A stretch of DNA of 20,000 bases, from assembly GCA_008632985.1 (NCBI GenBank), contig QPGO01000047.1, positions 243,496 through 263,495 on the forward strand, read 5' to 3'. Positions 1 through 20,000 of this stretch are shown in pieces; within the stretch, counting starts at the first letter, position 1, and each line of letters opens with the position of its first letter. The position numbers and the translations under genes were made by a program. Under the pieces are notes generated by a model that was given only the letters and a program-made list of their open reading frames with translations, ran no database searches and was not told the DNA's origin. The stretch is from Psammoneis japonica (lineage: Eukaryota).

Positions 1-2
1 AT

Positions 3-587
3 AACGGATGGATGGATTTGATGTTTATGTTTACGCACTTTCATTGCCAAAAGCTACCCGACTCGTACGAGGAAACCAAGAGACTTGTTCACGAGTACTT
101 TCCCGTCGTTTACGATACCAAAGTCCTTTCGAGCGAGTACTGCTTGGATTTTAGGGTTCGGAGCGATAGTACAACATTGCTAAAACTGCATGAAACGCTG
201 ATTGTACAAGACATATTGAACTCGAATCCAATCATTGTTTTAGACAATCAAGGAAATGGCGAAGCTCCCCTGTCGACACAAGAGCATGAGGCCGAGTATG
301 ATGCTTTCATGACGGGTGCCATTTTTGCGACCTTGTGCAAGAACATCCTTGATATGAAGGGTGAACGTTTTAGAGCCAATTATCATGTTGATTTAGATGC
401 ATCGGACGAGTCGCAAACGAATGCTAAGGATGACGATGATGACGATGACGACAATTCAGAAGCATCGAACGAATCGGACGTTTCTTTCGTACAAGACGGT
501 TCTTCCAAACGCGGCTTTGGTAGCTTGGTCCATCTGCTGGCGCCGACGCATGACCAAGACGTTAGGCGCTACTTTGGACGCAACAAG
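3..587 (+). CDS. PARN: Poly(A)-specific ribonuclease (PARN/CAF1 DEDD family), penultimate exon; 5' end lies outside the window
   Basis: The frame is open from base 3 (NGWMDLMFMFTHF...LP..YEE.K.LVHEYFP.VYDTK...HEAEYDAFMTG). This matches the PARN/CAF1 motifs HN.LLD, DTK and HEAGYDA.ITG. The exon ends at AAG|GTCAGT. Confidence 0.85.
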
Positions 588-683
588 GTCAGTACAGCAT
601 TACTTGTGTGTTCTCAAACGTTTTACGAAAAGTCACCCGTCTTTAGCTTATCCCTTGTGTATATCCTTTCTTGCCAAATCTAG
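588..683 (+). other. 96-nt GT-AG spliceosomal intron (phase 0) in PARN
   Basis: It starts GTCAGT at 588, has a pyrimidine-rich 3' part and ends TAG at 681-683. Removing it joins GRNK to IFFFNGLYTMDLE in frame, resembling PARN 'NKLFLM...YLNLEG'. Confidence 0.8.
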
Positions 684-1181
684 ATATTCTTCTTCAATGG
701 CTTGTACACAATGGATCTTGAAGAACCTGCAATGGATCCGTTGAAATTGGGCATGTCAAAAGAGTTCACCTATCGTGTTTGCGGCATTGATACGACTGTC
801 TCCACAAGAGACATTACTGGTTGTTTGTCTGGCATTGGAGACTACGAGCTCGTTTGGGTTGATGACACTACATTTATGATTGCTGCAAAGACAGATGAAG
901 GTGAAGCAGGAGAGAGTAGGATGGCACTACGTCGCAATGCGCGGGCCATTTTGGGGGCGCTTCGTGCTCGCTTTTCTGGCCAAACGATAATCACATTGGA
1001 CGAGCACTTGAAACGCGTTGCTGCGCAAGAGGCGGCCGAAGCGAGATTCGGTAAGGGTATTCATAGTCGGTTGGCCGCGTGGGTGTTCAAGACGTGGCAC
1101 ACGGTTTTCGGGAGGAAGAAGCGTCCGATTACCGAGGATGGCGAGAGTCAGCGCCCAAATAAGAGACAACGCGTGTCATAG
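684..1181 (+). CDS. PARN: PARN last exon: RRM-like domain plus basic C-terminal tail (putative NLS)
   Basis: 'STRDITGCLSGIGDYELVWVDDTTFMI' resembles the PARN RRM '[27 protein letters not shown]'. The tail is RKKRP...RPNKRQR, with stop TAG at 1179-1181. Confidence 0.8.
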   Translation: MFFFNGLYTMDLEEPAMDPLKLGMSKEFTYRVCGIDTTVSTRDITGCLSGIGDYELVWVDDTTFMIAAKTDEGEAGESRMALRRNARAILGALRARFSGQTIITLDEHLKRVAAQEAAEARFGKGIHSRLAAWVFKTWHTVFGRKKRPITEDGESQRPNKRQRVS

Positions 1182-1330
1182 GTTGTCTATGAGAAGGTGT
1201 ACATGATACGGGGTTTGGAGATGGAAGCAAAAGGAATGTGGGGGCTAGCGAGGGATGACTAGAACTTTAATAAGTTAGCAGCCGCAAAATCTGCCTAATA
1301 GAACCTTCAGGAGTAGTGCGACCGGTGACA

Positions 1331-1479
1331 TGATCTTTGCATTCGCCTGCTGCGCAACAGAAAGATACAGCATAATCGACGCGGCGCCACAAGAAGGACA
1401 GTGCGACAGGATATCTGATCTTTGCATTCGCCTGCTGCGCCATAGAAAATTACAGCATAATCGACGTGCGTCACAAGAA
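1331..1479. repeat. Two-copy direct repeat (~65-nt unit, 85-nt period) between the convergent 3' ends
   Basis: TGATCTTTGCATTCGCCTGCTGCGC is identical at 1331 and 1416. It is followed in both copies by near-identical AGAAA..TACAGCATAATCGACG..GCG.CACAAGAA. Confidence 0.9.
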
Positions 1480-1618
1480 CAAAAGTGGATCTTCATCTGT
1501 CGGTGCGATTCGTCGAAAACTCGAGTCTGCACCGATATGTGATACTACCGTACAGCTCTCCTGTACAAATACTCCTGCATCTACTGACGAGGTTTCTTTA
1601 CAAGCTTCGTGCTCTTGA

Positions 1619-3271
1619 CTAGTTTCCAATGTATACTCTGATGATATCCGCGATAGAGGCATAGGTACCAATGACGAGAAACACAAGTCCAGCCAAGAAC
1701 AAAAGGTAGCACTTGATCAATTGTGGCCAGTGTAACTTCCAAGAATTCGGTGCAGGAATACAAATCCATTGCGACTCGACCAAATCGTCGTTTCCATAGT
1801 CCAACCGTTTAATCCAGGCGAGCTCCAAAAGGGGTGGGATCAGTAGAGCCGTTGACGAGCCAGCCAGGGCACCTGCTAGCGAGATTAGGGCTTGTACATT
1901 TGGTACAATGACTGCCACCAAGTAGGTCAACATGACCAGCAGTGCTCGCAAGAGTGGGGAGTCTCCCGGCATGGTCATCTTTGGAAGTTGTGTGGCTATT
2001 GAAAAGACGTTCAAAGATGAGGTACGCGAGTTTGCACTTGAGTCAATCTCGTCGCTTTCAGCGTCACCATTCAACTGTCCATAGTGGTGTTCCGATGCTG
2101 GGGTCATCTCTGAGGGCGATACCGGTCTATGCTCTTCAAGTGGCGGTAGCGGCTCAAACGCCGATAGATCATTGTCCTCATCCGTAGTCCCGTCAGGTCG
2201 ATTGAAATAGTGCAGTAGCTTTCTTGATAGCCAAGGCCCGATGAGTTCCAATGCAGGAAAGAGTTGAAGTGGATAGGTCAATAGTACAGACAAGCTCACG
2301 GCCGTATTTGCCACCATGAGCCACCCCGCAATTGAAGGATCGTCTCGGTATGTTTCAACAAGAAAGGCAGTTACACTTCCATTGGTCACCTTTCCAAATA
2401 CCCAAACACAAGTACACGATACAGCGGCCAGAACAAAAGCAACAAACGTCATGGCTGAAACAAACACTTTTTGGAAGTGCTGCGGTTCTTTCATGGCAGA
2501 CTCAACCGGTAAAATTAGGCAAATGCCTTCATAGGAATAGAGAATTGCACATATTGCCAAAGGAGAAGAGGAAAGGTGGATAGTAGGAGTCTCCTCCGGT
2601 CTGTCACTCCATTTCTCTCCAACCACAACACCCAAGCAGCCAAAGCCGAGAAAGAGCAATAGGGTTGCAACAGCAACAACTGGTGCCAATGCTTTGAGAT
2701 TAGGAAGACAGCTCAGCATCATGACTGCCGGAAGAACCATTGTAATGACAAAACCATGGCCGATATTGTTCACCTCGAGGCGTGTCAGAACAGCAAGCAA
2801 GTTTTCTCCGACAAAGGATAAAAACACGGTACAAACAGCCAGTTGCGTGACGCAGATACAAGCTCTAATGTACGCCTGAAATTTTGTTCCATCCGCCCAA
2901 TGTCCGACATCAGGATACGTAATGTTGGTAGATATGGACGTTGCGGTGCCCTCTTCTTCTCCGTCGTTTTGTTCCGGGTTATCGTCCGCTTGGGTTTGTT
3001 CAATGTATCTCTTTATCTTGACGACGGTCCAGCAGTTGTACGACGTCCAGTACGACATGGCAAATATTGCAATGAAGCCTCCCGGTATTCCCAACTGACC
3101 CACAGCCCACGGAAGACTAAGACACCCCGGGCCGAGGTAGCCCTTGAGCAAGTGAAGAAAGGTCTCGGTGCACGTGGTTTGGTGAAGCTCGTCTTCATCG
3201 TTCTCTGCAGAAGTCACGCTGGTTCGTCTGCTTGTTGATAATTCACCCGTGGCGCTATTGTATTCTCTCAT
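1619..3271 (-). CDS. Amino acid/auxin permease (AAAP, Aa_trans; SLC36/PAT-like) transporter
   Basis: Uninterrupted ORF with about 11 hydrophobic segments. It carries the family motifs 'ETFLHLLKGYLGPGCLSLPWA', 'YSYEGICLILPVESAMKEP.HF', 'LTYPLQLFPA' and 'IPN..ALISLAGAL'. The first in-frame ATG is at 3271; the frame is open to ~3358, so an upstream exon or start cannot be excluded. Confidence 0.9.
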   Translation of the reverse strand: MREYNSATGELSTSRRTSVTSAENDEDELHQTTCTETFLHLLKGYLGPGCLSLPWAVGQLGIPGGFIAIFAMSYWTSYNCWTVVKIKRYIEQTQADDNPEQNDGEEEGTATSISTNITYPDVGHWADGTKFQAYIRACICVTQLAVCTVFLSFVGENLLAVLTRLEVNNIGHGFVITMVLPAVMMLSCLPNLKALAPVVAVATLLLFLGFGCLGVVVGEKWSDRPEETPTIHLSSSPLAICAILYSYEGICLILPVESAMKEPQHFQKVFVSAMTFVAFVLAAVSCTCVWVFGKVTNGSVTAFLVETYRDDPSIAGWLMVANTAVSLSVLLTYPLQLFPALELIGPWLSRKLLHYFNRPDGTTDEDNDLSAFEPLPPLEEHRPVSPSEMTPASEHHYGQLNGDAESDEIDSSANSRTSSLNVFSIATQLPKMTMPGDSPLLRALLVMLTYLVAVIVPNVQALISLAGALAGSSTALLIPPLLELAWIKRLDYGNDDLVESQWICIPAPNSWKLHWPQLIKCYLLFLAGLVFLVIGTYASIADIIRVYIGN

Positions 3272-3630
3272 AATATCAATAGAAAGAGGGCGCGCCTCGT
3301 CATTGGGGTCATCAATGGACACAAGGGAAAGGGAGAGAGGAGAGAGAACTAAGGTACATCAGCAACAACACGAGCTTTCCGCAAACCCTGCGGCGGCATC
3401 ATACCGGTACTGTAGCATCTCGCATCGCATCGCAACTGCGCGAGGTCCGGTGGGTTCGGTCCTCGAGCTATACTCTCCATCGTTTTGCTTTGAATGTTTT
3501 TTGACACCTGTGGACAAACGGGACACTGCGTAGCCAGGGTGTACTTCAGTACTCAGTGCTTCGTGGACAAGTGTACCAAGGCGTACCAACGTGTATCAAG
3601 TGCTTCACGAACGATGGGGAGTGAAAAACT

Positions 3631-3691
3631 TGCGCGAAAAATCGCGCACGCTGAGCAGGTAAGTCAGACGGGACTCATTCAGTCACGTCTG
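3631..3691. promoter_or_regulatory. Two short inverted repeats upstream of the transporter and near the left edge of the degenerate block
   Basis: TGCGCGA-AAAA-TCGCGCA (3631-3648) contains an E2F-like TTTCGCGC on the minus strand. CAGACG-G-GACT-CATTC-AGTC-A-CGTCTG spans 3665-3691. Function is not determinable from sequence. Confidence 0.3.
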
Positions 3692-4000
3692 CACGAATTT
3701 CCTCAAAACAACACCCACCATGCACCATGAGAATCGGAGCGGCGTTTTAGACTGTTGCCAATCCTTTCAACAATATCAACACTATCTACTAGTCTTGACT
3801 ATCGTAAAGAATCAACTTATGTTGCTTGTTTGAAGGTTTTCAGCCAATTGTAAGATGAAAACATGGATTTTGTAATTGCACCACGATTGATTCGACACTC
3901 ATCATTTTCGCTCTTCACTGCATGTCGCGATCGAATCGTATTGCGCCTTTGTTTCATTATGTCACTCATTTTCTTTGTAATGGTCATCTTTGTCACTCAT

Positions 4001-5780
4001 GCACAGAGGCTTGTGATGAAGCATCTTGCAGAATGGGAGGTGCGGCACGCGGCACTGTTGTCGTCCAGACAATGTGCAGTGGCTGTCATGATGGTGGACA
4101 CTGCAGAAGGGCACGTGGACATGATGAGTTGGCTCATTGAGAAGGCATTGCTCGCACTGCTGCTGTCAAGCTGGGAAACAACCAATCAACAGCTGATTTT
4201 GTTGGTTGCGCTTCTGTCCTTCTGTGAAAGCTCTTTGACTCCTGCTTCGATGGATCGCTTGTGCGTCCATCTCAACGACTGCGCCGCTGGTCGTGAGCTA
4301 GAACTGCTGACTGTTGCAAGGGACCACGCGTGGAGGGAAGCTGGTCGATGATTTCCTGGCCCCATCTTCGAAAAATGCCAGAGATCTGCACACGAAACTG
4401 GCAGTGTCATTGACTCTTCGCCACTTTCGAATCAGATGGCCCCGGATGGCAGCAGGTCAGCGGAAGAAGGAATGTGTCCTTTTCAGGTGCTGGAGCGGCG
4501 TTCACAAATGCAACTCGCTTGACCTTCATGCAGTTTGAGCCCGTGCTGCTTGAGTTCCTGTCCATTGAACATTGGCCACACTGAGTCGGTCGACAACATT
4601 GATGTCGATGTTGACAGGCTGCTTTGCGTTGCACTGGCTTCGCATCTGCAATCCCCTTGGCCTTGCCTTTTCGATGTAGCATGACTGCTCTACAAGGAAC
4701 CAGGCCTTTTGCTGACTACAAACAAAAGCCTCCAACGCTGCTTCAGTCGTGCTTGAGACCTGCCAGTCTTCATTGTGCAATGTGCTGGTTCGATCTCCCT
4801 GCTGCACTCGGCTTGTCCGACAAATTGACGCAATGAATGGAACTCGAAGCCCGCCCCTTGATTTGGCAAAGGAACTCGTGTGCCTGTGGAAGGAGTCTTT
4901 TAAAAGAACAAGCACTGCTGTCGATGCAAGTGAAGATCTCCCACCTCCGCTTGGCATGGAATCAGTGCGGTTGCAAGCGGTGACAGCAGGGTGCATGCTT
5001 CCCTTTGGCAGAAAATCCCTCCCACCGAAGCTCGCCCCAATGATTCGATCTCTCGTGACAGCCCTGATGAATGAGTCAAGTGGATCTCGACAGGGATGGA
5101 AATTTCTTCATGTGCTGCTCAGATGTTGAAGCTTCCATCTGTTGGAGACCATCTGAGAGTGAGGCACAGAGTGATGGAGAACATCTGCGTCCTTGTGGAA
5201 CATGAGAAATCATCCACTGGCCTTGATGTCCGTGCCAAAGGCTTCATTGTTGCGGCCGCACATGTTCTTGAGTGACAAGTCCATCATCTTCCAAGTCACT
5301 GCACCATGAATGCCCTCCTTCAATTTGGGCGAGAATGAAGCTGTTGAACAGGTGCAGTGCAATCAATCTGCCACAGACGCATTTTGGGGGTTGTGTCGAA
5401 ATCGCCATGACGCAATGCCGATTTGTTCGCTCGCTTGACAGACTTCACAGTCCAATCTCTCGTGCTTGTCACTTTTGGGTGCCCCAGTGTCCGATGCCTT
5501 TCCCTGGCAGCGTTTGAGTCATCATTGTGAACTCAAAAAAGGGTTGAGGATTTCGGTGAAGCATCTCAGAGATGCTCAAAATGACACATGCATGCCAGCG
5601 AGTTGCACCTTGCTGCAATCGATCATCAAATCTGCTGGGATGTGAGTTCGCGAGTTTGTCAAGCTTCTTCTGTCCATTGTGATGTCTCTCATGACTGATT
5701 CATTAGTTGATTGCCCGACAATGGCTGCTTGGAGTTTTGCTGACTTCGGCACGATTGCCCCTTTGGTGCGAAGGGACCAG
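4001..5780 (+). pseudogene. BTAF1: Fragmented BTAF1/Mot1 (TBP-associated Snf2 ATPase) HEAT-region pseudogene
   Basis: 'EWEVRHAALL' (~4030) resembles Mot1 'WEVRHGA'. 'LPPKLAPMIRSLVTALMNE' (~5020) resembles 'LPEKLNPIIKPLMETIKKE'. 'REFVKLLLSIVMSLMTD...AAWSFA' (~5650-5740) resembles 'PYIVLLVVPVLGRMSD...ATQCFA'. It has multiple stops, frameshifts and deletions, and no ATPase domain. Confidence 0.7.
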
Positions 5781-5988
5781 TCATGTGTTGTTGGAGCAAC
5801 GGACGCCAACGATTCCACCACAAAGGTGAGAGGGCAAGAGCCAGCACACACCACCGAGACATTGTTCCTTCACATGAATGCAAACAAAAGGATCCAGCAG
5901 GGGCTGGCTTCGATGATGGAGGAGGAATCCGATGGCAGCATTGTTGTGCATGCCGGCAACCCCACGTTGAGACTTGCACTTTACGACC

Positions 5989-6340
5989 ATGTCGGACGAA
6001 GAGCAAGAACCACACGATGAATTTGGAAATGCACTGGCCCTGATCTAGGTGACGATTCCTCCTCTTCTTCTTCGGATGAACATGATGAGCATCCACAAGC
6101 TCCTGACGATGCGTCCGACGTCTCTGAAGAAGGCTGTGGCGGTGGTGCCATGGTGATCCCCTCGGATCATCAAGAAGAAGCAGAAGCAGAACCTGTGGGT
6201 GTGATTGTCTTGCACAAAGACAAGGAGCATTGTCCTTCTGCCAATGAGGTTATGGCGAAGAAGTGCGGACGGCTGTTTTAGATGAAGATGCCATGGATCT
6301 TGACGTGCCCTTGGTGGAGCCCATTCAGACAAAGAAAAAC
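5989..6340 (+). pseudogene. EFTUD2: 5' fragment of EFTUD2/Snu114 (U5 snRNP 116 kDa GTPase), acidic N-terminal domain only
   Basis: It reads MSDEEQEPHDEFGN/[fs]CTGPDL..acidic..IVLHKDKEHCPSANEV/[fs]YGEEVRTAVLDEDAMDLDVPLVEPIQTKK. The conserved pattern is 'LYDEFGNYIGP.L...VLHEDK.YYP.AEEVYG..V...V.EED.Q.L..PII.P'. There are two frameshifts. Confidence 0.85.
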
Positions 6341-6377
6341 GCCGTTGCTGCTGCTGGTGGTGGTGGAGTTTCGGATG

Positions 6378-6668
6378 TGTCTTGCCATTCGCGAAGCCGT
6401 CTTGGGTTCAAATCATCTGGACATGGCTGCCAGTTGCAACAACATTGCTTTGGTTCTCGAACATCAGGGCAAGCACGAGGAGGCCTTGATGGAGCATCTC
6501 AAGGCACTTGCCATCTTGGGGACAAATCATCCCGACACGGCTTCAAGGCACAACAACATTGGTGTGGTTCTCAAACATCAAGGCAAGTTCGAGGAAGCCT
6601 TGCTCGAGTTTCAAAAGGCACTTGACATTCATCAGGCCGTCTTGGGTCTAAATCATCCACATCAATGA
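6378..6668 (+). pseudogene. Fragment of a kinesin-light-chain/nephrocystin-type TPR repeat gene (about 2 repeats)
   Basis: It reads LAIREAVLGSNHLDMAASCNNIALVLEHQGKHEEALMEHLKALAI and LGTNHPDTASRHNNIGVVLKHQGKFEEALLEFQKAL. The typical pattern is 'HP..A.SYNN.G.V...QGKYEEAL..YQKAL', so Tyr positions are now Cys or His. Confidence 0.85.
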
Positions 6669-7981
6669 TTGCAGCTGCCACAAGGAATCATCAGTGATTG
6701 GTGCGGGACCAAATGATGGCCATGGGTGAAGGAGAAGTGCACAGAACCCCATCTGTGGAGCGCGTCGAAACCGTCTGTTTCAGGCTGGTGCTCCGGTCCA
6801 TGGAGAAGAATTGAGCACTTCTCTTTCACTTCATCATTCAAGAGGGGTCTCTGACAATGCGTCGGCGGAGCGACAAAAAGAGGGAGCTGCTCCAGCTTCA
6901 ATTTGTTTGACCCGCACGATGTGATTGAATCCTTCCTTGCACCCAATGCACCTTGAACTTGATTCCAATGCCGACGGTTGTCTCTTGTCAATGGACTGCG
7001 ACGATGACGGTCGCAGCACTTGTGATGTCGTTGCACACTTTGATGTCGTAATTTTTGTTTTTGCACCACGCCAAGCAGCCCCAGTCCGAGCATGGCGAAT
7101 CCACACATTGATTTACACAAGCAAAGGATCGATGACTGTGAATGTGTGCAGGTGCTGGTTGGTCATGTCAGCTCAGAACGACGGCGCCGAAAGCTGTGGC
7201 AAGAGTGAATTTGATGTGGTTTGATGAGTCATCCTGTTTCTGATGACTGTTTCAGCCTTTCATTGAAGGAGTTCGTCCATGGATTCTTGCGCGACAGATC
7301 TTGTCAAGGTGGCAAAGAATGTTGACAAAAGCGCTGATCTCTTTGTCAGCCTTCACCATGGGAACGTTGCCAGTGCTTTGAACACCTGGATGTCGTGTGA
7401 CCAATTTCGTTCTCTGAGAGAAGTGGCTGCATCTCTGTTTCATCATTTTCTGCTGGTCTCATGAGATGAAATTGTTTCACAACATCTTGGATCAAACGAC
7501 GGGAGTGCTCTTCTTCTCTCCCTCATCTGCACCAACAAGGATGCCGTCGTGCCACAGAAGTGGGCCGACTTGGACCCTTGCTTCATTGTGAACAGCCAAG
7601 AGGTGAAACTTCACAGCTTCACAACATCGGCAAGTTTGCATCTGTTTGCTTTCCCTTGAACTGGAGCGATTTGGTGTCCTTGCAAACTGGTTTGTCGATT
7701 TTAACAATGGCATGTCTCCAGGTGCATGAGGTTGTCTCAATGGTGGCCCACCAGCACAAGGAAGCCGATGAGTGGGAGCTGAAGAAACTTTGGTTGAGAA
7801 AAGGGAAGAATCATGCTTTGACATTTGTTTGACGCCGGCTGCTCCAACCTCTTCGACTCTTCCCGCAGGGCTCCTGTTCTTGCAGAGAAAGGTGAAGAAG
7901 GTGGAGGTCACTCGTGCTGTTAACAACCTCACAGCAGCCGGAAACACTTCTCCAAATGGGAACCAGCTTTCACAACTCAGA

Positions 7982-8442
7982 ATGAATTGAGCGGATCTGT
8001 TGTCTGTGGCATTTGTTGGGACCTTTTCGGGATGCACAAATCCACTTTTACGAAGGGGATCTGCGGAAGCTGAAGCCGACGACGAGCCACGAAATGAAAA
8101 CAAAGCATCTTTCTCCCTCCGACGTTCGCTTGCAGAACTTCAACGAATTCAAGTGATGGCATGGCCCCGTGTGCTGTGCTCAATCAATGGGGTTCTTTGT
8201 TGTGCTTCAAGGTTTTGGCAACATTGGATTTGACGCTTGCCGTGCTGGCATGCAATGCCCTTTCTTTGGTGTTTAGAAGCAGTTTCGGCACCAGCCTTTT
8301 TCTGGGAGAGCGGGTGGACAAACCTTTTCGAGCCTCTGCTGGGGCATCCTTGGTTGTGACGGGTGTTGCCATCTGCATGTCATCAAGAGAGGCAGATCGT
8401 CAATCACCTCGGCCAGATGCAACAAAAGAAGGAGAGCTGTGA
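7982..8442 (+). pseudogene. TMEM234: Near-full-length TMEM234 (UPF0546, DMT-like membrane protein) pseudogene
   Basis: It reads MN*ADLLSVAFVGTFSGCTNPLLRRGS...LNQWGSLLCFKVLATLDLTLAVLACNALSLVF...LGE...AGASLVVTGVAICMSS. TMEM234 reads 'VAALWGGTQPLLKR...[32 protein letters not shown]...LGE...AGMVLTVIGISLC'. There is a premature TGA at codon 3 and a frameshift near 8160. Confidence 0.8.
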
Positions 8443-8899
8443 CGAGAAAGTTGTTTGACTTTCTGCACAAATGGGACTTTTTCCTGTGTGAAGAACACAC
8501 TCACTGTGTGCAGCACCTTGTTTCACAGTGAAGGGTTGAAATGATGCCAGGCACCTCCAGAAAACGCTGGACGATTTCGCTCATGCTATGATGACATGTG
8601 GTTGCAACTTGGCCGAAGAGGGAAGAGTATCATGCAGCTTTCCCGGCTGTTTGTGATTCAGTCTTGACTTGGACCTGCGTGTGCTTCTAAAAACTGGACG
8701 AGTCATCAGGAAACAGCGGTGGTGGCATCGGCTTGGCTCCTGCCTTCTCTTCGGCACGTTGCATGATTGGAGTTTTGAGTTGCGGGTGTCAAACTAGACT
8801 GTGCCCAAGAAGACAGTGCGGGGGAAGTTGCAAAGACTCTCCAGGAAGAAATTGTAGACTTGGTGGAAGAGCGAGCGACTGTGGCAGTGGACTTGTTGA

Positions 8900-9338
8900 A
8901 TCAACCGGCAGCTCTGGACAATGCGAGAATTGCCGAGAAGAGGAGTTTGAGCAAGAGTTGAGAAAGGAAGCACAGGATGCGATGCAAAGGCTCTCATCAA
9001 GTGGAGCCTCCACGTCAACAATGGCGGATTCGGCAGCGCTAGAAGCACACGAGACCAAAATTGTTCGACTGATGGAAGCCAACAAGAAGGCTGAAGAAAA
9101 GCACTCTGGTGAAATGGAAGAAGCTCAGGGGGGAAGTTCAATGGTTGGAGTTGGCAAATGCTGCATTGAAGGTGGATCTGGACCAAGCAGAAGAGACATG
9201 CAAGTGCTTCAGCGCATTTCACAAGAACGAATCGATGCAGAATGGGAAAAGACAGATGATTTGATTCTCACCTTGGAAGATGCCACAGATCAGCTTCGAC
9301 CAGATGAGGATGTCCCCATCAAAAGCGATCGCGAATGA
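8900..9338 (+). pseudogene. Fragment of an unidentified coiled-coil protein gene
   Basis: E/K/Q/A-rich helical stretches (EQELRKEAQDAMQRL...LEAHETKIVRLMEANKKAEEKH; ERIDAEWEKTDDLILTLEDATDQL) lie inside the degenerate block. No family was recognised. Confidence 0.35.
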
Positions 9339-11319
9339 CTCCTGTCCATGCTAGAAACAGCAGTGCTTGCACATTGACAAGTCAAGCTGTTGCTCATGTT
9401 GATCGAGACCACATTGCAGAATCAACTTGAGAGTGTGAAGAATGACAATCTCAGCATGAGCGGGGCTGGACCAATGGATGCCAGGGTCATGGATCATTTG
9501 AGTCGACACAGGCCGAAGGCACTGGACACAGCTCCAGTCAAGACTGCACTGCATCTGCAGCAGCAACATGGGTCACCATCCTCTTTCAAAACAAACCTTG
9601 CCCACCACTTGCAGACACACATTGGAAGACGTCCAGGCAGCCTTTTCCACCAAATCCAAGGCCAAATGCAACACGAAATGATTCATCACCAGGAGTGCCC
9701 TGGGTGGCGGGATGGCAATGATTGGGAACAAGAAGTGCACTGTGCTGCCCCGCCTCATTGGGACACTGTTGGACACAAAGACCCAATCTGGAGGAAGCAG
9801 CCATTGCAGAAACATCCATCATGGAACCCGATTGTCCCGACAATTGGCTTGCAAGCCAAGGTGCCGTCAGGTGGTTTGGACCGGTCAAGGAGGGTGACAG
9901 GCCGCGCTCTTTGGATGAGAGCGGAGCATGCATTGGCTGAATTCAGAGCTTTGAGGATTGGGCTTGTGTTGATCGCTGCTTTGGAAATGGGCGGAACAAC
10001 AGGTGCTTTCAAGTCGTCAAAGAGCCCGCAAGCGAGAACAGTGCAACACTCTCTGGCTTGAAACCTTGACGACACTGCCAAATGGAAGTTTTCTGAGCTG
10101 TTGTCCTCAGCTTTGTCATTGCTGCAAAGCCTCTGTTTTCCCTCAATCTAGCTGGGTGTGACTGCAGCAAGCTCCAATCTCAATGTGTTGTCATTGGCTG
10201 TGCGTGTGTGCAGGAGCATTGATTTCAGCGACTCAGCGAAGCTTCGTTGAACATTCGGTTTGACCGAAACTTGATGAGGTTGTCTTCTTGGAAACCACAT
10301 GGTGCAAACGCAACTAGCATCATGTTGCACTCTTTTCACTTTCGCACACTGGCTTGCACAATCTGATGGCACAAGATGGGAGTGCACCAAAACATTCATC
10401 CCACCCTGCACAGTGTTCCGACTGCCGTGTTGGCCAATGTCAACAGCCACGCAAGCAGCAAAAGTGGAAAGTGGAAAGCAATCTGCTGTTGTTCTTGTCA
10501 TGACGGATGTCATTCGACGTCATGACTGGTTGAATTGTTCCAAACACAAAATGCGCATGATGCATGGACAGGCCAGGAATTGTGTGGATGATGCATCCAG
10601 CAAATGGTTGTGGTTCTTGGCAACAACAAGATTGTGCAAGGACCCATTTGATTGAAAAGATGGAAGCACATGAATGACAAAGTTCTGTGTTCATTCTAGA
10701 TGCCACGGAATGTTTTCCTTCATTGCCATGGAGAGGAGCCGCCATCCTTCCTGGCACACAAACAAAGCCATTCCGTGACACCAATGCTTGCCTTGACATT
10801 TCCATTCTTCCACAATTCATTCTCCACATCCGAAACAAGCAAGGGTTTGGTTCATTGACTGCGGCTGATCTTGAGCAAGTGCAGAGTCGTTGTTTCATTG
10901 AAGCACCAATCATGCCTGGCACACATTTTGTTGCGGAAAACATGAGTCGCGGGGCGGGACCCACTGTTGCTTGAACCTTGGCACTTCAACAAAGACTGAC
11001 TGCCACATCGTTTCAAGAGTCGGGTGGTCGAACCGGGGCACAAAGGGTGCATTGCTACGTTGACAAGGAAGATGAAAAGCAATGTCAGCAAATGCATCTC
11101 GAATGAAAAGAAAAACAGACACGAAATCGACTTACGTTGGGGGTGCGTTCGAATGCAATGCAACACAATGAGTGCACCCCACGGCAGTTTGAAATGCATG
11201 ACAAACTCATGCAATGTTGGCAAGTCTTTGATGTGCACAAAAGCTGTTTTGTGCCGTGAAATGGAGTTGAGAGATGCCCCCATGCATGCTCGATTTCCAG
11301 AGTGCAAAACAAGCAGTCA

Positions 11320-12891
11320 ATGAGTCTGCGGCGACTCATGATCCTTGCAGATCTGCGCACGACACGCCCAGCATTAGACAAAATAAAGACACTGCCCGTC
11401 ACTCCACTGAGCCTGGGCGAGCGTCTCAAAGAGACAGGATGGGCTGCTTTCTCCTCATTCTGCGCAACAACAGCAACAACATCCACAGGATCAATGTCTT
11501 CATCTGGCAACTCCGCGTTCTCCAAATCTTGACCCTCTCCTTCAAGATCAATGCCATGTTGCAACAGCCCATCATCCACAGGTTTTCCAAATCATCTGTT
11601 GGTTCTTCCACATCTGGCAGATCATTCAAGGCATTGTCAGGCGCCTCGTCTGCTGCCAGAACGACTTCCTTGGCAACAGAATTGTCATCAACAGCAACAG
11701 CAGGATCAGCCAATGGCTCCTCTTCACCCTCACCTTCTAGCACAATGTCATGATGCAACAACCTGTCATCCAAAGGATCACCCGAATTGTCCAACGGCAC
11801 TTCCACATCCAAGGCATCATCTGGCTCCTCACGTGCTTCAACGGCTGCATCCACCTGAACAACTTCCTCCTCGGCGACAGGATCAGCAGCAGCAGCAGCA
11901 ACAACAACAGGATCAGCATTGGGTCCCTCAACCACTGCATCTGCCGGAGCAACAATGGCCTCGACCGGTTCAATTGCCGCTGGAGTCTGCACCCATCCAT
12001 GCCAATGATCATGCCTTGGATGCGTTTGACACTCACGAATGCATTGGTCTGGTTTTCGCTCGTGCTCAAGCAGCGCATCAGCCTGTTGCTCATCATTCAG
12101 GATGGGAATGACACGAGTGTAACGTGGTTGTCGAAGAACGCCTTTGGCCGCCCTGCCAGTGGGGATTGGAGGAAGGTCACTGACAAAGACATTCTTGATC
12201 AGTTCTCCGTCCGGCAGCCACTCTAAATGCCGCTGACGACACTGCCGAGCCAGCTTGTCTTGCTCCTCGTCGACTCCACTCAAGGCAAAGTCCAACTTCC
12301 GATCAGATGGCGCTGGAATCTTGGTTGCATGCTTTGGATCTCGAAGAACTTTTGGAGCAGCCATGCCGGTTGGGACGGCACGATCGCGAACACCGTGCAG
12401 GTTCTGCTTCAGTCCAGCGGGTCTCCATCTGACACTCCCACGGCAAAAGCATTTGCGCTTCAAGAACAGCAGCCAAGTGACCACAAACTGAAAAGCATCA
12501 CAGACAAGCAGAAGAACGAATGCACGGTCCATGCAACCAATGCAACCGCGAGAGCAGCCGAAACAGCATCGCATGCTCGATCCCAAAGAAGTGTGGTGAC
12601 GTCGTCAATTTCCACAATTCGGCAGCACAAGAAACAGACAGTGCTGCCAATCAACTTCAGCGAGCAGCACACGAACACCACAGCAAATGCAGCGAGGAGA
12701 GCTGTGCAGACCGCAAGGACAAAGGCCACCAGTTCTTCAATCATGCAGCGAATCTCGTCCACGGCAATGCACGAGAAAATCCACATTTCCCAAAGCAAAC
12801 CGCTGGCGATTCGGCCGTGGTTCTGCTTGCCGTGAAATGCACGTAGCAGGAGATTGACAAAGAGTGTGATCAGTGCAATGCATGCAATCAT
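11320..12891 (-). pseudogene. Frameshifted gene for a hypothetical protein: hydrophobic N-terminus, acidic Ala/Val/Asp/Glu-rich repeat region, basic RRS.RL tail
   Basis: Three consecutive minus-strand ORFs (12460-12891, 11426-12586, 11085-11579) join into one architecture. It has an internal repeat DDRLLHHDIVLEGEG / DDGLLQHGIDLEGEG and the tail LRRSPRLSGVTGSVFILSNAGRVVRRSARI. It is Cys/His-rich and nearly Tyr-free. The 3' end is approximate. Confidence 0.5.
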
Positions 12892-13973
12892 GATGGGGGT
12901 AATGGCATCAACAAAGACAGATTGGTAAGAGTGTGTTTCAATGCAAGCAAAACTTGAAATTGTGTGGTGAGCGAGACGTCGCTCGTTGTTGTGGCTGCGT
13001 CACATTCGTGAATCGTGAATGTGTAGAAACTGTACCGGTGAAGCCCGTAGAAAAGCCGACAGTCAGTCACGCTTTTCAAGTTTTGACGTGATGTTGCGGC
13101 ACGTTTGCATTCGGTTACTCATAGGCTCTAAGGTAGAAACAATCAGAGGCCGGGATTGATGTTGGATGTATCCATGATGAGTATTATCTATTATAGAGCT
13201 TTTCTCTGCAATGAAATTCAGTGTTGCTACGACAGAGCCCATTCTTCTTAGGCCTACTACAAGTACGGTACGCTTCAGACCCAGAAGTAGCATGCAGATT
13301 CTGGTGCTTGCTCCCGTGACACGCCACAAATCAAACTAGTTGAACGATCCTCCCGGTGATACCATGGTAACTGACAACGAATGCATTCTTGATTGAAGAC
13401 GTCGACAGGGTAAGACTGTCCTCGTCGTTGAGGAGTAGCCTCACTGAGTCTGAGCTCGACGGAAACGGTCCCACAATCCAACAAAGTAAGAGCCGAACTA
13501 AGAGTATCGTCGGATTTCTTTTTGCTTTGTTTTGGCAACACGAGTGCCAATACTTTATTCAGAAGTAAGTCACCGAGAAGTACAATTGATCTTTTCAAAC
13601 CATGCCATTCAAATAACTCCATTTTGCACACCATGCGCGACGCTCTGAAGGTCCTAATTCCGGTGTTATTTGAAGGGAGCATTGCCATGCATCATGTGAA
13701 AAAAGTTTCGTAAAAGGGACGACAGAGGATGATTCCAAGATAAGGCACATAGCACCAGATCCTCTTTTCTCCGAAAAGGCATTCTCTCAAAGCCATAGGC
13801 TCATTCCCAAGCGCCATCCAAAAATAATGATAAACAAATGTTGCTTCGCAGAGTGATCTCATGATGGTAAGTATGAACTCGTAGGCAGCCCATTCTTTTG
13901 CTTGATGAAACTCGTTCGTGAGGATCCTTAGCGTCCAGAGCGAATCCACGTGGGCGGCACATAGCCAGGAGAG

Positions 13974-15461
13974 TCAGCGACTGTTGGTGTTAAAAGCGAG
14001 AAACGTCACAAGCAAGTAGCAGAGATGAAGATTTGTGAAAGCCTCCGGCATCCAATTCCTGCTTGCTTCTGGTCCATACCTGTCCCTGGCAGCCAAACTA
14101 TTGAATTGATTCTTGCTTCCGCCATGACTCAGTAGGATCTTGATACAACCGTCCCGTCCAAGCTGACACGCCAGCATTAGCGGTGTAGTCGAAATCTCGT
14201 CATCATTTTGCTCTCGACTTGTCTTTGTATATCTGTTCTTCCTCTCGAAATCGTCATTCAGCCACAACATTCTAAGCAAGTGCGGCCTATCCAAGCAAAT
14301 GGCAAGTCCAACAGGCGAAAGCTTTTTCATTGCGCAAAAGCCATGGACCTCACTTAAGCCCAACTCCTTCAACTCAACCGGCTTGTTCAGCCCAATGTTG
14401 ACACCATGATCATTTCTGTAGACGTCCAAGAGTTGCGAAACCGCAACGGAATCATCGTTTTTGACGGCAAGGTGGAGTGGATAAGGATGTCGGAGATAGT
14501 CATTGACCATGACGACGTCGGCTTTCGCCGTATCTGAAATGCCTCGACAAGCTATATGTGATTCATCAGTTTCAGTGTCTATTGATGCGTCAGACGAAGC
14601 GGTCGAGCCACTGCTACTGTCATCGCTGCTTTCCGAAGGAGAGTCCTCTTCGTGCAGCCGTTGTTCTCGTTGTTGCTGTTTCTTTTCTCTGATAATTTGC
14701 CTCCATCGGTTGCGCAGTTTTGCCATGCCCCAAGGCGCCGATTGGGTATAGCATGATGATACCGATAACTGCTGAATATCTCCCACGGAGGAACAAGTTT
14801 CGTTTTTCGTTTCTAGTGGCTCGGCTACTAACGGAGGTCTGTCTTGGGCTGCAGCTCTTGCTGAGAGAGTCGTAAGTACTGCATTCCCACGCTCTTTCTG
14901 CTCTATCTGCTCTAATCGTTCGTTTTCTTGCTGCTCTTTCTCTTTTCCATGAGCCTGCCACGCCACATCCGACCACTTCCCCTCGTCGCTCGTTTCTCTT
15001 GTCCTATTATGGCTTGCTTTTGTGAAGGATTCACGCACGTCCAACGGAGGAAACAACGACCGAAATTCTGCAAAGGACAAGGCTGTATCCTTTTTATCTT
15101 TAACGTGGCAACCATCAACGGATTGGGTTGTTGATGTACTTTGCTTGTCAATTTTGTCGCGTCGTTTTCGGTTATTTCTGTGATGTTGTTTTCTATTGTT
15201 TTTCTTATTCTCTGTTGCGTTTGTTCCCGCACGGCCGGTATCGCTGTCGTTTGTATTATTTTTTGACGTATCCTTTTCTTTGTCTGCTTTTGTCTTTTCC
15301 TTTCTATTCCTGCGTTTCCTTTGTTGTTTGTTTCTTTTTCTGGTTACTTGTAACGTTGAGCTGCCGCCGCTGTCAAACGATTCGCGTGTGCCTACAGACG
15401 AATGTGCCAAAGGAGGTATGTTTGACGGCAGGAAAACGGGAGCATCAGCTCTCAACGACAT
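13974..15461 (-). CDS. PAM2-motif, basic/low-complexity and ankyrin-repeat protein (possibly 3'-truncated)
   Basis: ATG at 15461 gives MSLRADAPVFLP (PAM2-like), followed by a K/R/N-rich region. Ankyrin-like repeats include YPLHLAVKNDDSVAVSQLL, SPVGLAICLDRPHLLRML and TTPLMLACQLGRDGCIKILLSHG. A probable intron (GTATGG at 14079 to CAG at 13981) is followed by a stop two codons later. TpA content is normal. Confidence 0.7.
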   Translation of the reverse strand: MSLRADAPVFLPSNIPPLAHSSVGTRESFDSGGSSTLQVTRKRNKQQRKRRNRKEKTKADKEKDTSKNNTNDSDTGRAGTNATENKKNNRKQHHRNNRKRRDKIDKQSTSTTQSVDGCHVKDKKDTALSFAEFRSLFPPLDVRESFTKASHNRTRETSDEGKWSDVAWQAHGKEKEQQENERLEQIEQKERGNAVLTTLSARAAAQDRPPLVAEPLETKNETCSSVGDIQQLSVSSCYTQSAPWGMAKLRNRWRQIIREKKQQQREQRLHEEDSPSESSDDSSSGSTASSDASIDTETDESHIACRGISDTAKADVVMVNDYLRHPYPLHLAVKNDDSVAVSQLLDVYRNDHGVNIGLNKPVELKELGLSEVHGFCAMKKLSPVGLAICLDRPHLLRMLWLNDDFERKNRYTKTSREQNDDEISTTPLMLACQLGRDGCIKILLSHGGSKNQFNSLAARDRYGPEASRNWMPEAFTNLHLCYLLVTFLAFNTNSR

Positions 15462-15682
15462 GCTACTACGAAGAAGCAAGAAGGATGTCACTGTGTTGCA
15501 TGGATGGATGTTATGTATGAGGAGGCGTTGCAACGTTGCAAAGTTAATGACTCTGATTTCCGGCACCACGCGCTATGCTCTTGTTACTTTGTTTCTTTGT
15601 GTCTCTCACCAGTCACGAGTCAACAACCGAGTCTGATTCACGGATGACGCTTCCGGTCATGGATCTCTTCTTCCGGAAGAAA

Positions 15683-15893
15683 TGTCCGTTGAGTCTTCTA
15701 GCGATAGTAATCGGAGTGACACACGACCGTTAGGTCATAATGTCATCTCCAATCCCTCGTGAGATCTTCTCATAATTCGTATCTTTAGCGTATCTTATTG
15801 TCCCAAAACTACTTCTTATCATCCTCTGTTGTATTGTACAACCTCAAGAGAGTCCTGAACTCTCCATCCTACACAGTGTATTGTTGTATCCCA
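15683..15893 (+). repeat. Putative 5' LTR (start uncertain)
   Basis: It ends ...TATCCCA three bases before the PBS. The candidate TG start at 15683 follows a 14-bp palindrome. It cannot be confirmed without the 3' LTR. Confidence 0.45.
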
Positions 15894-15896
15894 AGT

Positions 15897-15908
15897 GGTT
15901 ATGAGCCC
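15897..15908 (+). promoter_or_regulatory. Primer binding site, copia half-tRNA-iMet type
   Basis: GGTTATGAGCCC differs by one base from the GGTTATGGGCCC PBS of Drosophila copia-type elements, and sits directly after the CA-ending segment. Confidence 0.65.
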
Positions 15909-15978
15909 AATCCACACACCGGCATCAACTCGCAACGGAGTTGCTGCCACTCGTTCGTCTCGTTACAGACAACATCCC

Positions 15979-16065
15979 ATCCAACGGCGATCTTCTATGT
16001 CGCAATCCAACGGCGATCATCTGTGTCGCAATCCCTGCCTGCTAATCGATCCTCTATGTCGAATC
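15979..16065 (+). repeat. 26-nt tandem repeat in the retrotransposon 5' leader (2 copies plus a partial third)
   Basis: ATCCAACGGCGATCTTCTATGTCGCA (15979-16004), ATCCAACGGCGATCATCTGTGTCGCA (16005-16030) and a partial CGATCCTCTATGTCG (~16047-16061). Confidence 0.85.
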
Positions 16066-16075
16066 ATCCACAACC

Positions 16076-19000
16076 ATGTCCATGGATCCTGACACCGTCA
16101 AGATGTTTGCTGAAGCCTTCGCCAAGATGCAAACCTCGACCAACCCTCCTGCGATCCCCACGCCGCTTCGCGGCGGCACCCACCACTCTCATGGAGTGCA
16201 TCTGGGTGGTTCAGCTCTGAACAACAAGTGTGAGCAGACCGACACCCGCACCTGCCGTTTTGCCTCGCAACGTCGCCATCCGAAAGCTGTCGACTCTGTC
16301 GAGCGATCTCTCCGAGATCAACTCGCTTCGGCAACCACATCCAAGTTCAACGGCCAGATTGAGTTGTCCAACGGTTCCAGCACTGAACTGGACAAAGACC
16401 ACTTCGTCAAGACCATCCAGGACTTGATCGAGTTGCATGGACAAGAAACTTTCTACCATCTCAAGAAAGTCGACGGCAAGGTCGTGCACCTTTTTGATCA
16501 TCTTCACGCCTTCACTGTCAAAGACCTTGAGAAGGAATGTGAGACCCGTGTGGCGGCTGCAGGTGACGAAGGCTACGATCAGCATGAAATCGATGACATC
16601 GGCTCATCACAACTCATCGTCAAGTCGCGCATCACCGAAACCTTCCGTGAAAAGATTGAAACCAAGTTTGGTCACTTGAAGAACTGCAAGGATCTTCCGG
16701 GGTCTGTCTCATTTATGATGGCTCTGGATGCCTGCAACGCCAGTGCTCTGGTTGACGTCAAGGCCGCCAAGGAAAAGTTGAATGACTTAACTCTGGACAC
16801 CTGCCCTGGTGAGGACTGCGCCGAGCTTGCAACCGAAGCTCTGCGCCTGCTCAAGATCATGCAGACGGACTGTGCGCCACCAGTTGAAACTGGGTCCACT
16901 GTTTTATCTAAGGTGTCAAAGACATCCTCCGAGTTTTTCAATCGTCAAGTTTTTGCCAAGCTCGACTCCGTCAAGCGCTTGGAGCGCAAATGTCGCTTGC
17001 GTGACCCGGCAGAAGTCCCCAAGGATGCCGACCACGCGGATCTTGGACCTGTTGGCCTCATTGGCTGGATCACCAAGACCCATGGCGAGCTCATTGGCGA
17101 TGAAGATTGGCCTGCCTCAGCAGCCAAGCTCCCGGAATCCAACCTCACCAAGGACAACTCGGAAAAGCAATGCTGCGGCTGTGGCAAGGTTGGGCACACC
17201 AAACGCACGTGTCCCACCTGCAAGGAGCAATGCAAGAAGGACAAAAAGGGCACGGCGGACAAGTCCAAGGATGACCCTCCGGATGTCCGGAAGACTGACC
17301 CTTCCAAGAAACCACCCAAGCCGGCCTGGCGTTTCGTTCACAAAGGTGCCACTGTCACCGACGAGAAAGGCACGACCTGGCACTGGTGCGACAAGTGTGT
17401 GAACAAGGAAACGGGCAAGAAGGGCATGCATCAAGGCCACTCCTCCGCTCAACACACCGGGAAACCGTCTGTCAAAACCGAAACCACCGCTGCGGCAAAT
17501 TTATCTGCTGTGTCGGACCCCTCTTCGGGCATTCCTTTTGGTCCTCCCGAGCAGACGACGTCTCCGCCTACAGACAAACCCTCTGACCCTAACGAGCTGG
17601 TTTGTTGCGGCATGTGGTGTGCACCTGTGGACGACTCTTTGAGTTCGACTCCAGTGACTACGACCGTCACGTTCACTCCTGCTCCATCGGCCGAGAGGGA
17701 GACTGCCGTGGCCAAACCCGCTCCCATCTTGGTTGAAACGGTTGACCCCGAAGACGCTGACGATTGCTCCGAGCACTCCGACGCTCACTCCTCTTTTGAC
17801 TCCCTGCCGTCAGCTGTCGAGCCATTTCCGGCCTATGCCATGCATGAGATTCAAAATCCGGACGTGTTTTATGACACGATCGCAACTCACGTGGAAGGTC
17901 TGTCCGACGACGTGTTAGACGATCTCGTTTCCGGGGCAAGCATCCCACCTTTCGAAGACAGCTACGAGCACTTACCTCCAAGCACCCAGCATCGCGGTTT
18001 CGAATTTTACGATCCCGAACCCCAAGATGTTGATTGTGGCGTCGAGGAGGCAACGCCGAGCTCTCGTCTTGAGCTCTTCTGGAACTTCTTGAAGCTCCGA
18101 GTTTTCTGGCTGTTTGCCATGTTCTGGGAAACGGTGCTGCACATTTGCTGTGCGCCGATTCCTGTCTTACCTCGTCGCATGCGCGGTAAGGCATTCATCC
18201 CAACCATTCACGGTTTCCCCTCTACCTGGATGGTGCTGACTGGAGCCATCATGGTCTGGGCGTCTGTTTTCAATGGTCAGCTTCCCACGCATCCATTCTC
18301 CAATGTCCCCTCTCGCTTCTCCAAAGCCAGCTCTCAGGTCTGCTCGATCATTGAAGAACTGGACTATGAGACAGTGTTAGATCCGGGCAGTTTGGTGGAA
18401 TGCAACAAGATCAAGGCGCGACAAGTGCTTGCCGAATTTGTGGAGCGCGATCCGGACCATTGTCTGAGCAAGAAATTCACGCAGCTCTGGGAGAACGACG
18501 TGTGCTCTTCCCCAGGCCGCTGTGTCCCTCCAGCTCTAGAAGACCCCGAGTCCCACTTCGACACCTGTGATTCAGAGGAAGCCCTCGGCCCGCTCCCGAC
18601 CGAGCCGAGCCACTACTTTGACACGGTTGAGGAGCTCTCTCCGGACTATTTTCGTTTCGACGAGCTGTCCACCAAGTTTGGTTTCGTGGACACCACTCCA
18701 TGGCAAGACCCTGTGAAGCTTCTCCAGGCAGCTGCTGACGGAACCGAAGCCTGTCCCACTCATACCTCTGTGCAGGTGTTGACAGGCCAACGTTCTTTAG
18801 CACAACTCGCCGCCGACCCGCAAGCTTTGCTGAGCCTGGCACATGAGCGCCACACCGTCACATGCGATGCTGGCGCATCCTTGGCCATCACTTGCGATGA
18901 AAACGACTTTGTCGGACCTCTGACGATCCCTGATGGCCCATTGAAGCTTGGGGGTCTAGCAAATGGCTTAACCATCGCCGGCATCGGACCCGTCTCCTGG

Positions 19001-19999: not shown

Positions 20000-20000
20000 T

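Follow-up and report, generated by a model that had tools for sequence, protein, structure and literature searches.

The 20,000 nucleotides (nt) of a contig of the diatom Psammoneis japonica that were analysed here, referred to below as the window, carry ordinary genes on either side of a domain of 9022 nt (3979-13000) from which the dinucleotide TpA has almost disappeared. Broken copies of host genes lie within this domain, and their codons, together with the dinucleotide composition, point to a hypermutation by which TpA was turned into TpG or CpA on both strands. Another stretch, in which TpA is scarce to a lesser degree, carries a copia-like retroelement and occupies the end of the window. 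On the basis of the ratio of observed to expected dinucleotides (o/e) the window divides as follows:

1-3978: left flank; o/e of TA 0.65, TG 1.11, CA 1.26, CG 1.02
3979-13000, no strand: TpA-depleted, TG/CA-enriched and CpG-poor domain, from dinucleotide o/e and TpA count; o/e of TA 0.07, TG 1.60, CA 1.56, CG 0.62
13001-16045: middle part; o/e of TA 0.59
16046-20000: second, milder TpA-poor stretch; o/e of TA 0.19

The depletion is both strong and continuous. The domain contains 37 TpA, where about 341 would be expected at the TA o/e of the flanks (Poisson P ~2e-98), and the ratio is at most 0.17 in each 500-nt window from 4001 to 13000. The left edge is sharp, with TpA dense up to 3978 and the next one at 4299; on the right the change falls between 12926 and 13024. 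The adjoining DNA on both sides is gene-bearing and has a TA o/e of 0.59-0.65. The first-pass annotation of this DNA, which was made from the sequence alone, had described the domain in similar terms, and its counts were confirmed: 15 TpA in the first 240 nt, 36 starting in 3980-12900 (35 up to 12899 and one at 12900), and two runs of some 800 nt, between 4901 and 5704 and between 9352 and 10149, with none at all. The abundance of TG and CA that it had noted is borne out by the ratios of 1.60 and 1.56, and its statement that adjacent genes are spared by the sharp edges and the TpA-normal genes on either side.

The GC fraction of the domain is 0.506, versus 0.465-0.477 in the flanks. The dinucleotides AT, AA and TT show no depletion, and the change is therefore not a general drive from AT to GC such as biased gene conversion. 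TGA is the one stop codon that is still common; the near loss of TAA and TAG leaves the domain with many open frames of 100-390 aa. In total 132 stop-to-stop frames of at least 45 aa overlap 3900-13100, the longest being 392 aa. Long spurious open reading frames (ORFs) are borne by all six frames in both 3979-13000 and 16046-20000. Gene callers would over-predict in such TpA-free domains, for which the TpA o/e is a cheap flag. A repeat search found no pairs of long terminal repeats (LTRs) or terminal inverted repeats flanking the domain.

The fate of the lost TpA can be read from the balance of the dinucleotides. Relative to the flank frequencies, the domain has lost 350 TA and 152 CG and has gained 262 TG and 203 CA, so that the losses of TA and CG nearly equal the joint gain of TG and CA (465). 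Six mutation models were applied to the flank sequence, and all 16 dinucleotides of the outcome were compared with the domain by a chi-square-like distance:

TA to TG/CA at 0.89 plus CG to TG/CA at 0.38: distance 90, the best of the six
TA to TG/CA alone: distance 129
TA to any dinucleotide plus CpG decay: distance 150
TA to TT/AA plus CpG decay: distance 365
CpG decay only: distance 575
no change: distance 657

The best model predicts frequencies of 0.1015 for TG and 0.1041 for CA (seen: 0.1008 and 0.0967), and it is the addition of CpG decay to the change of TA into TG/CA that improves the fit from 129 to 90.

The loss of CpG coincides with the domain, its o/e being 0.62 there and 1.02 in the flanks. 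Measured against the flank expectation it is strongest in the context ACG/CGT (0.54) and weakest in TCG/CGA (0.82). We take it as a separate and ordinary decay of 5-methylcytosine, as in DNA that has been methylated for a long time, and it is a reasonable inference that the domain would be methylated and silent. In the diatom Phaeodactylum, DNA methylation disappears and young transposons are de-repressed when DNMT5a is lost (PMC9998398); the decay in methylated diatom transposons treated there resembles the CpG o/e of 0.62 with TG/CA products seen here. Such decay accounts for only about one third of the TG/CA excess (152 of ~500 lost dinucleotides) and for none of the TpA loss. A single deaminase behind the loss of both TpA and CpG, with a T-C-G preference as in BjADAT2, was considered and rejected, TCG/CGA being the least depleted class of CpG.

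The recognisable content of the domain consists of fragments of host genes, which are listed here together with a part that is likely repeated:

5979-6359, plus strand: pseudogene copy of the 5' end of EFTUD2/Snu114 (Pfam PF16004; alignment to eight homologues)
6360-6668, plus strand: kinesin-light-chain-like fragment with TPR_10/TPR_12 repeats (Pfam; alignment to KLC1 of the PDB)
7991-8442, plus strand: TMEM234 fragment in two frames (Pfam PF10639, E 4.2e-9 for 8098-8442 and E 0.0031 for 7991-8233)
9573-9818, minus strand: N-terminal fragment of Sedlin/TRAPPC2 (Pfam PF04628; alignment to PDB 1h3q)
10673-13340, no strand: likely repeated part of the domain (higher summed contig depth; no Pfam match)

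The gene fragments were identified in a Pfam scan of 3854-13335 that covered all 95 ORFs of at least 60 aa (of the 132 of at least 45 aa) and, in addition, all six frames of 3901-13202, translated across the stops with an X for each. The matches were to EFTUD2_N, TPR, TMEM234 and Sedlin_N, with a weak one to DUF5817. Neither set of frames yielded a viral or transposase domain, although a heavy missense load may hide such genes from Pfam. The BTAF1 fragment of the first-pass annotation could not be recovered, as no frame of the domain gave a Pfam match to it at E up to 0.5. A homologue search with the TMEM234 fragment found none, so that the replacement of LLY by LLC proposed for it in the first-pass annotation is a candidate change only, and a PDB search with the EFTUD2 piece yielded a weak match only (E 0.4). 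The frame of 392 aa (11426-12604, minus strand) had no Pfam match and no usable match in the protein atlas, and is probably open merely through the scarcity of stops. In the likely repeated part, 11500-12200 is CAG/CAA-rich and of low complexity, with runs of poly-Gln and poly-Ser/Ala/Thr in translation, and the strongest local strand asymmetry of the domain is found at 11501-12000 (75 CA versus 30 TG).

The ATG of the EFTUD2 piece is at 5989; one nucleotide is missing after GGAAAT, the frame shifts near 6250, and a stop lies in frame at 6279. Contigs of two public runs, the DNA run X1 and the run X2, probably of cDNA, match 5979-6359 with 34 differences (~91% identical). The TPR fragment is fused directly to the EFTUD2 piece and contains a 114-nt tandem duplication (6396-6623); its units measure 38 aa (114 nt), the usual length being 42. 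To judge from the frameshifts, the stops and the EFTUD2-TPR chimera, the fragments are dead. The EFTUD2 piece begins 10 nt 5' of its ATG, and the X2 contig begins 20 nt before the match. There are hints that the mosaic of fragments originated by retrocopying or template switching. An X1 contig of 449 nt matches the Sedlin region (9520-9967) with 42 differences. Like the contigs matching the EFTUD2 piece, it is ~91% identical to the domain and resembles what the parent gene (EFTUD2 or TRAPPC2) should look like.

The direction of change was read at tyrosine codons, from homologous proteins rather than from parental DNA of the same genome. In the EFTUD2 piece, 23 residues (GEEVRTAVLDEDAMDLDVPLVEP) match the consensus of the homologues exactly, yet the four Tyr that are invariant among the eight homologues read His (CAC), Cys (TGC), Cys (TGT) and Tyr, and the one retained coincides with a residual TpA at 6251. 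The Leu beside a Tyr reads Pro (CCA). The replacements LYDEFGN to PHDEFGN (CCA CAC) and HYPSA to HCPSA, proposed earlier from the sequence alone, thus agree with the homologues, and a change of the Tyr in GNY to Cys is also seen. In Sedlin, the string NNMYLK of PDB 1h3q has become SNVCLQ, with TGT as the codon of the Tyr-to-Cys change. For the TPR fragment, 1330 repeat stretches from 150 homologues were aligned and the nine columns with a Tyr fraction of at least 0.35 were taken. These read Cys, His, His, His, Phe, Phe, Phe, Leu and Leu, without a single Tyr, for which the product of (1-fY) is ~5e-4. In the homologues Cys or His make up only 0.02-0.14 of these columns, and Phe and Leu are common alternatives; the earlier readings of SYNN as SCNN and of GKYEE as GKHEE hold up against the homologues too. 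Over the three fragments, Cys or His is found in 8 of the 14 Tyr columns, Tyr in one and Phe or Leu in five. Cys, from a sense-strand A>G, and His, from T>C, occur together within the EFTUD2 piece and again within the TPR fragment, and therefore both strands were hit.

The TpA that survive in the domain suggest a wider context of the process. YTAR (Y, pyrimidine; R, purine) accounts for 19 of the 37 survivors and for 44 of 300 TpA in the flank (Fisher P 1.6e-6), RTAY for 1 of 37 versus 99 of 300 (Fisher P 3e-5), and CTAG is not depleted (9 seen, 11.6 expected). Since in a two-strand process neither strand of YTAR offers T-A-Y, its sparing fits a preference for T-A-Y. Moreover, all three informative T-TA-Y tyrosine codons became Cys, so that the strand offering T-A-Y was the edited one. 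These observations suggest a mutator that prefers 5'-T-A-Y-3' and hardly touches CTAG. For comparison, the sequence to which TadA is directed in nature is U(-1)A(0)C(+1)G(+2) (PMC10586758).

The end of the window is occupied by a different kind of TpA-poor sequence:

15555-16045, no strand: high-depth, TpA-normal segment upstream of the copia-like ORF (21 TpA between 15699 and 16043)
16046-20000, plus strand: copia-like retroelement ORF of 1318 aa (gag_pre-integrase, E 1.3e-4; TA o/e 0.19)

The open frame spans 16046-19999, with a first ATG at 16076, a zinc-knuckle-like string (CX2CX4HX4C), a weak gag_pre-integrase match and an integrase-like region at the end of the window. That the frame is open does not prove it functional, since no stop codon can arise from a change of TA to TG/CA. 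Its residues are skewed, with 13 Tyr, 63 His and 42 Cys versus 34, 36 and 30 in 1340 aa of three host ORFs (Fisher P 5.5e-5). The codon ATA is used for none of 39 Ile (12 of 61 in host genes) and GTA for none of 89 Val (15 of 90). Among the surviving TpA, RTA is represented by 3 versus ~105 expected and YTAY by 24 versus ~40, 13 of which are Tyr codons. Summed contig depth is 1700-2900 over this stretch and reaches 3920 in the bin 15342-16008; a unique contig ends at 15554. The upstream segment, which has a 26-nt tandem repeat at 15979-16034, may be an LTR or 5' untranslated region that was spared by whatever depletes the ORF. The copia-like stretch may be a copy that was mutated in part, may have been edited while single-stranded during replication, or may belong to a lineage that turned TpA-poor under this pressure. 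Editing of minus-strand cDNA would agree with the strand bias and with the sparing of the segment upstream; with the gradient in TpA density, 0.48 per 100 nt in 16046-17500 versus 1.16 in 17501-20000, it does not agree. Of 39 pattern matches to the integrase region that a search of metagenome contigs returned, none was confirmed.

We consider the best explanation of the domain to be a hypermutation at the DNA level, by which a deaminase would have converted TpA to TpG or CpA on both strands of silent diatom DNA, and would assign it a probability of about 0.72. The mutational reading is well supported by indirect evidence, and the both-strand, context-specific A:T to G:C mutator at TpA that the first-pass annotation had put forward is sustained by the mass balance, the model fit and the joint occurrence of Tyr-to-Cys and Tyr-to-His changes within fragments; the enzyme is one that we infer. 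More specifically, a silent, gene-free patch of chromosome, built of broken host-gene copies and of unrecognisable, partly repeated sequence, would have had its TpA turned into TpG or CpA on both strands until hardly any was left, and the process would halt no more than a few hundred bases short of the genes on either side. As the agent we propose a TadA/ADAT2-like adenine deaminase of polynucleotides that would work in the nucleus and turn the A of 5'-TA-3' into inosine, which is read as G; what directs it may be the state of the chromatin and not the number of copies. Because the change can never create a stop codon, genes would be killed by missense: all Tyr would be lost, Ile (ATA) would become Thr or Met, Val (GTA) Ala, and Leu (CTA/TTA) Pro or Ser, and TAA and TAG would be removed. 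As to the target, it had been described as repetitive or silenced DNA. That it is repetitive stands for 10673-13340 and for the copia-like element, where summed contig depth is high, and not for 4003-10672, where it is like that of the flanks (85-270, versus 140-264 in the left flank and 470-1190 in 10673-13340). Although summed contig depth is not a copy number, 4003-10672 looks near single copy.

The domain may well represent the genomic end-state of a process that has been measured in real time in Bigelowiella natans, and the earlier statement that no eukaryotic system of this kind had been described is therefore outdated. In the preprint by Mettrop et al. (bioRxiv 10.64898/2026.01.13.699255), mutation-accumulation lines had 302 single-nucleotide mutations in the nuclear genome, of which 231 fell in integrated giant-virus and virophage DNA; 230 of these 231 were A>G or T>C, each at TpA, and the rates were ~1000x background. 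Low-TpA coding sequences were enriched in reverse transcriptase and DDE domains, and the authors suggest that adenine in DNA is deaminated by an ADAT2-like enzyme. The two cases share an exclusive A:T to G:C change at TpA with its strand-dependent TpG or CpA products, the regional character, the proposal of adenine deamination, and a footprint depleted in TpA and enriched in CpA and TpG, the thresholds for which our domain passes with a wide margin (TA 0.07, TG/CA ~1.58). They differ in the host, a chlorarachniophyte (Rhizaria) there and a diatom (stramenopile) here, and in the target, which is viral there, whereas here it consists of host pseudogene fragments and a copia-like element, with no viral gene found in the Pfam scans. 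They also differ in degree (Rho 0.45 is given there for the giant-virus region, versus the near complete depletion of 0.07 here) and in kind, de novo mutation having been measured in B. natans whereas the domain is an inferred footprint. The main text of the preprint makes no mention of 'trinucleotide', 'context' or 'diatom', and our literature search found no diatom report of a TpA-erasing signature.

Several points weigh against the hypermutation or against parts of it. For the direction of change there are composition and 14 protein columns to go by, and five of these columns read Phe or Leu, which is uninformative rather than contrary. The flanks are mostly coding and thus an imperfect proxy for the ancestral composition of the domain. 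With regard to context, the product trinucleotides do not conform neatly to the T-A-Y rule (TGR +154, TGY +107), in a test that is confounded by strand composition; if CTA was indeed the original codon, its inferred change to CCA would have taken place in a context that the mutator disfavours, and CTAG could have been regenerated rather than spared, for instance by C>T at CWG. Unlike the domain, the copia-like stretch shows no TG/CA excess over the flanks and no CpG loss and is strand-asymmetric, and a TpA-normal segment of high depth adjoins its TpA-poor ORF. Finally, the run X1, used below as support for the assembled bases, may be the assembly's own source sample, and its platform is not on record.

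As to rival explanations, a TpA-specific mutation of DNA that does not involve an adenine deaminase is rather unlikely, though it deserves to be weighed; it would proceed by a mispairing modified base or by aberrant glycosylase or mismatch repair toward G:C. The composition and codons of the window indeed show the outcome alone. We know of no glycosylase with TpA specificity. The preference for T at -1 and for a pyrimidine at +1 resembles the U-A-C recognition of TadA, and deamination of A to inosine is the simplest chemistry that yields solely A>G, as the authors on B. natans likewise propose. On the other side, aberrant thymine-glycosylase repair does give context-bound T>C changes, as reported in PMC4041421.

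Very unlikely is the view that the DNA is TpA-poor by nature, either as foreign (viral or transferred) sequence or through selection against TpA/UpA. It could appeal to the integrated giant-virus and virophage DNA that is the target in B. natans, and to the TpA poverty of the copia-like ORF, which starts within ~20 nt of its first ATG and has a codon-related look. The content of the domain, however, is host-gene fragments in which Tyr reads Cys or His, and since their frames are broken there can be no selection on coding or RNA; the absence of viral and transposase domains from the Pfam scans of the domain speaks in the same direction. To our knowledge, moreover, no genome-wide value comes anywhere near a TA o/e as low as 0.07.

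That a modified base at TpA was systematically miscalled in long reads, or that the signature arose through some other artefact of sequencing or assembly, is highly improbable. Modified bases in silent chromatin can cause systematic errors in long reads, and the platforms of the assembly and of X1 are not on record. Nevertheless, the X1 run contains 0.60 of the sampled 31-mers of 3500-13400, whereas ~310 miscalls in 9 kb, or one per 29 nt, would leave hardly any common 31-mer. Of the 1585 aligned contigs of X1, 450 are at least 99% alike, and contigs reaching 315 kb suggest accurate reads. Among the differences listed, the only well-supported one inside 3979-10672 is A>G at 4724.

Retrocopies of A-to-I hyper-edited RNAs (ADAR-like, or fungal TAD2/3-like with a 5' U preference) are scarcely credible as the source, for although the start of the EFTUD2 piece just before its ATG, the similar start of the X2 contig and the chimeric fragments, as from template switching, would suit them, one RNA strand yields A>G in the sense orientation only whereas the EFTUD2 and TPR fragments each combine T>C with A>G, the depletion runs unbroken over 9 kb through both fragment orientations and the spacers with domain-like edges, and a 3' G, favoured by ADARs, is disfavoured here, where CTAG survives.

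The hypermutation can also be set beside other systems of deamination and genome defence. With repeat-induced point mutation (RIP) of fungi, which depends on RID/DIM-2, it shares regional and saturating dinucleotide-specific transitions, sharp edges, cytosine methylation alongside, and a role in genome defence. RIP, however, turns CpA into TpA, raises TpA and AT and makes stops, whereas in the domain TpA is lost, GC is up and no stops are made; moreover, RIP needs duplication and most of the domain looks near single copy. Membership of the domain in fungal RIP was rejected on this opposite direction. ADAR-type editing fixed by retrocopying was likewise rejected, as the sense-only A>G that it entails is not what the EFTUD2 and TPR fragments show. 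TadA and ADAT2-ADAT3 convert A to inosine, and the U-A-C-G recognition of TadA (PMC10586758) resembles the T-A-Y proposed here. BjADAT2 of amphioxus edits nuclear DNA, with preferences in DNA of GAA for A and TCG for C (PMC10354150); these differ from TpA, and in the domain CpG loss is weakest at TCG/CGA. APOBEC3 and ADAR offer a parallel in that deaminases restrict retroelements and leave a strand-biased footprint, as the loss in the copia-like ORF is strand-asymmetric. APOBEC3, however, deaminates C (a G>A footprint) and ADAR acts on double-stranded RNA in metazoa, whereas the domain is two-stranded and not a retroelement; the copia-like stretch for its part lacks the gradient rising from 5' to 3' that is expected of cDNA editing.

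What is new with respect to B. natans is the major lineage, the host pseudogene targets, the near-saturation, the T-A-Y/CTAG context and the co-located CpG decay. To date there is a single description of regional hypermutation of TpA to TpG/CpA, the 2026 preprint on a chlorarachniophyte; its saturated footprint in a diatom would mean that more than one alga has the process and that host-derived pseudogene DNA is hit as well as viral inserts. Diatoms are ecologically dominant and include CRISPR-tractable species for knock-outs of candidate deaminases, the search for which is narrowed by the T-A-Y preference with CTAG spared. Within the window itself, Pfam scans of the frames found no deaminase gene. 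If true, a natural adenine deaminase directed at double-stranded DNA or chromatin would interest base-editing research. A more tentative idea, which we regard as possible rather than probable, is that of an old defence, common to diatoms and Bigelowiella and shared across the stramenopiles, alveolates and Rhizaria (SAR), based on a TpA-specific DNA adenine deaminase that would be guided by the chromatin of methylated, silent domains and not by their being repeated or foreign, would owe its T-A-Y preference to a TadA/ADAT origin and would act on replication intermediates of retroelements too, so that the coding sequences of active copia elements became TpA-poor.

The genes outside the domain are the following:

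3-683, plus strand: 3' part of a CAF1-family ribonuclease gene, TpA-normal (Pfam PF04857, E 1e-22)
1619-3358, minus strand: intact amino-acid transporter gene, TpA-normal (Pfam Aa_trans, E 3e-54)
13974-15572, minus strand: ankyrin-repeat ORF between the domain and the copia-like stretch, TpA-normal (Pfam Ank/Ank_2)

All named relatives of the transporter are diatom proteins, with an identity of at most 57%. The coverage of the window by X2 contigs has gaps at 4003-5336, 7338-10005 and 16009-20000, which are not evidence on expression. An X2 contig also skips 585-682, the ends of which are GT..AG, so that a CAF1 intron is probable there. Between the ribonuclease and the transporter, at 1315-1466, lies a direct repeat of 67 nt (87% identical, 85-nt spacing), and a contig variant skips 1324-1416.

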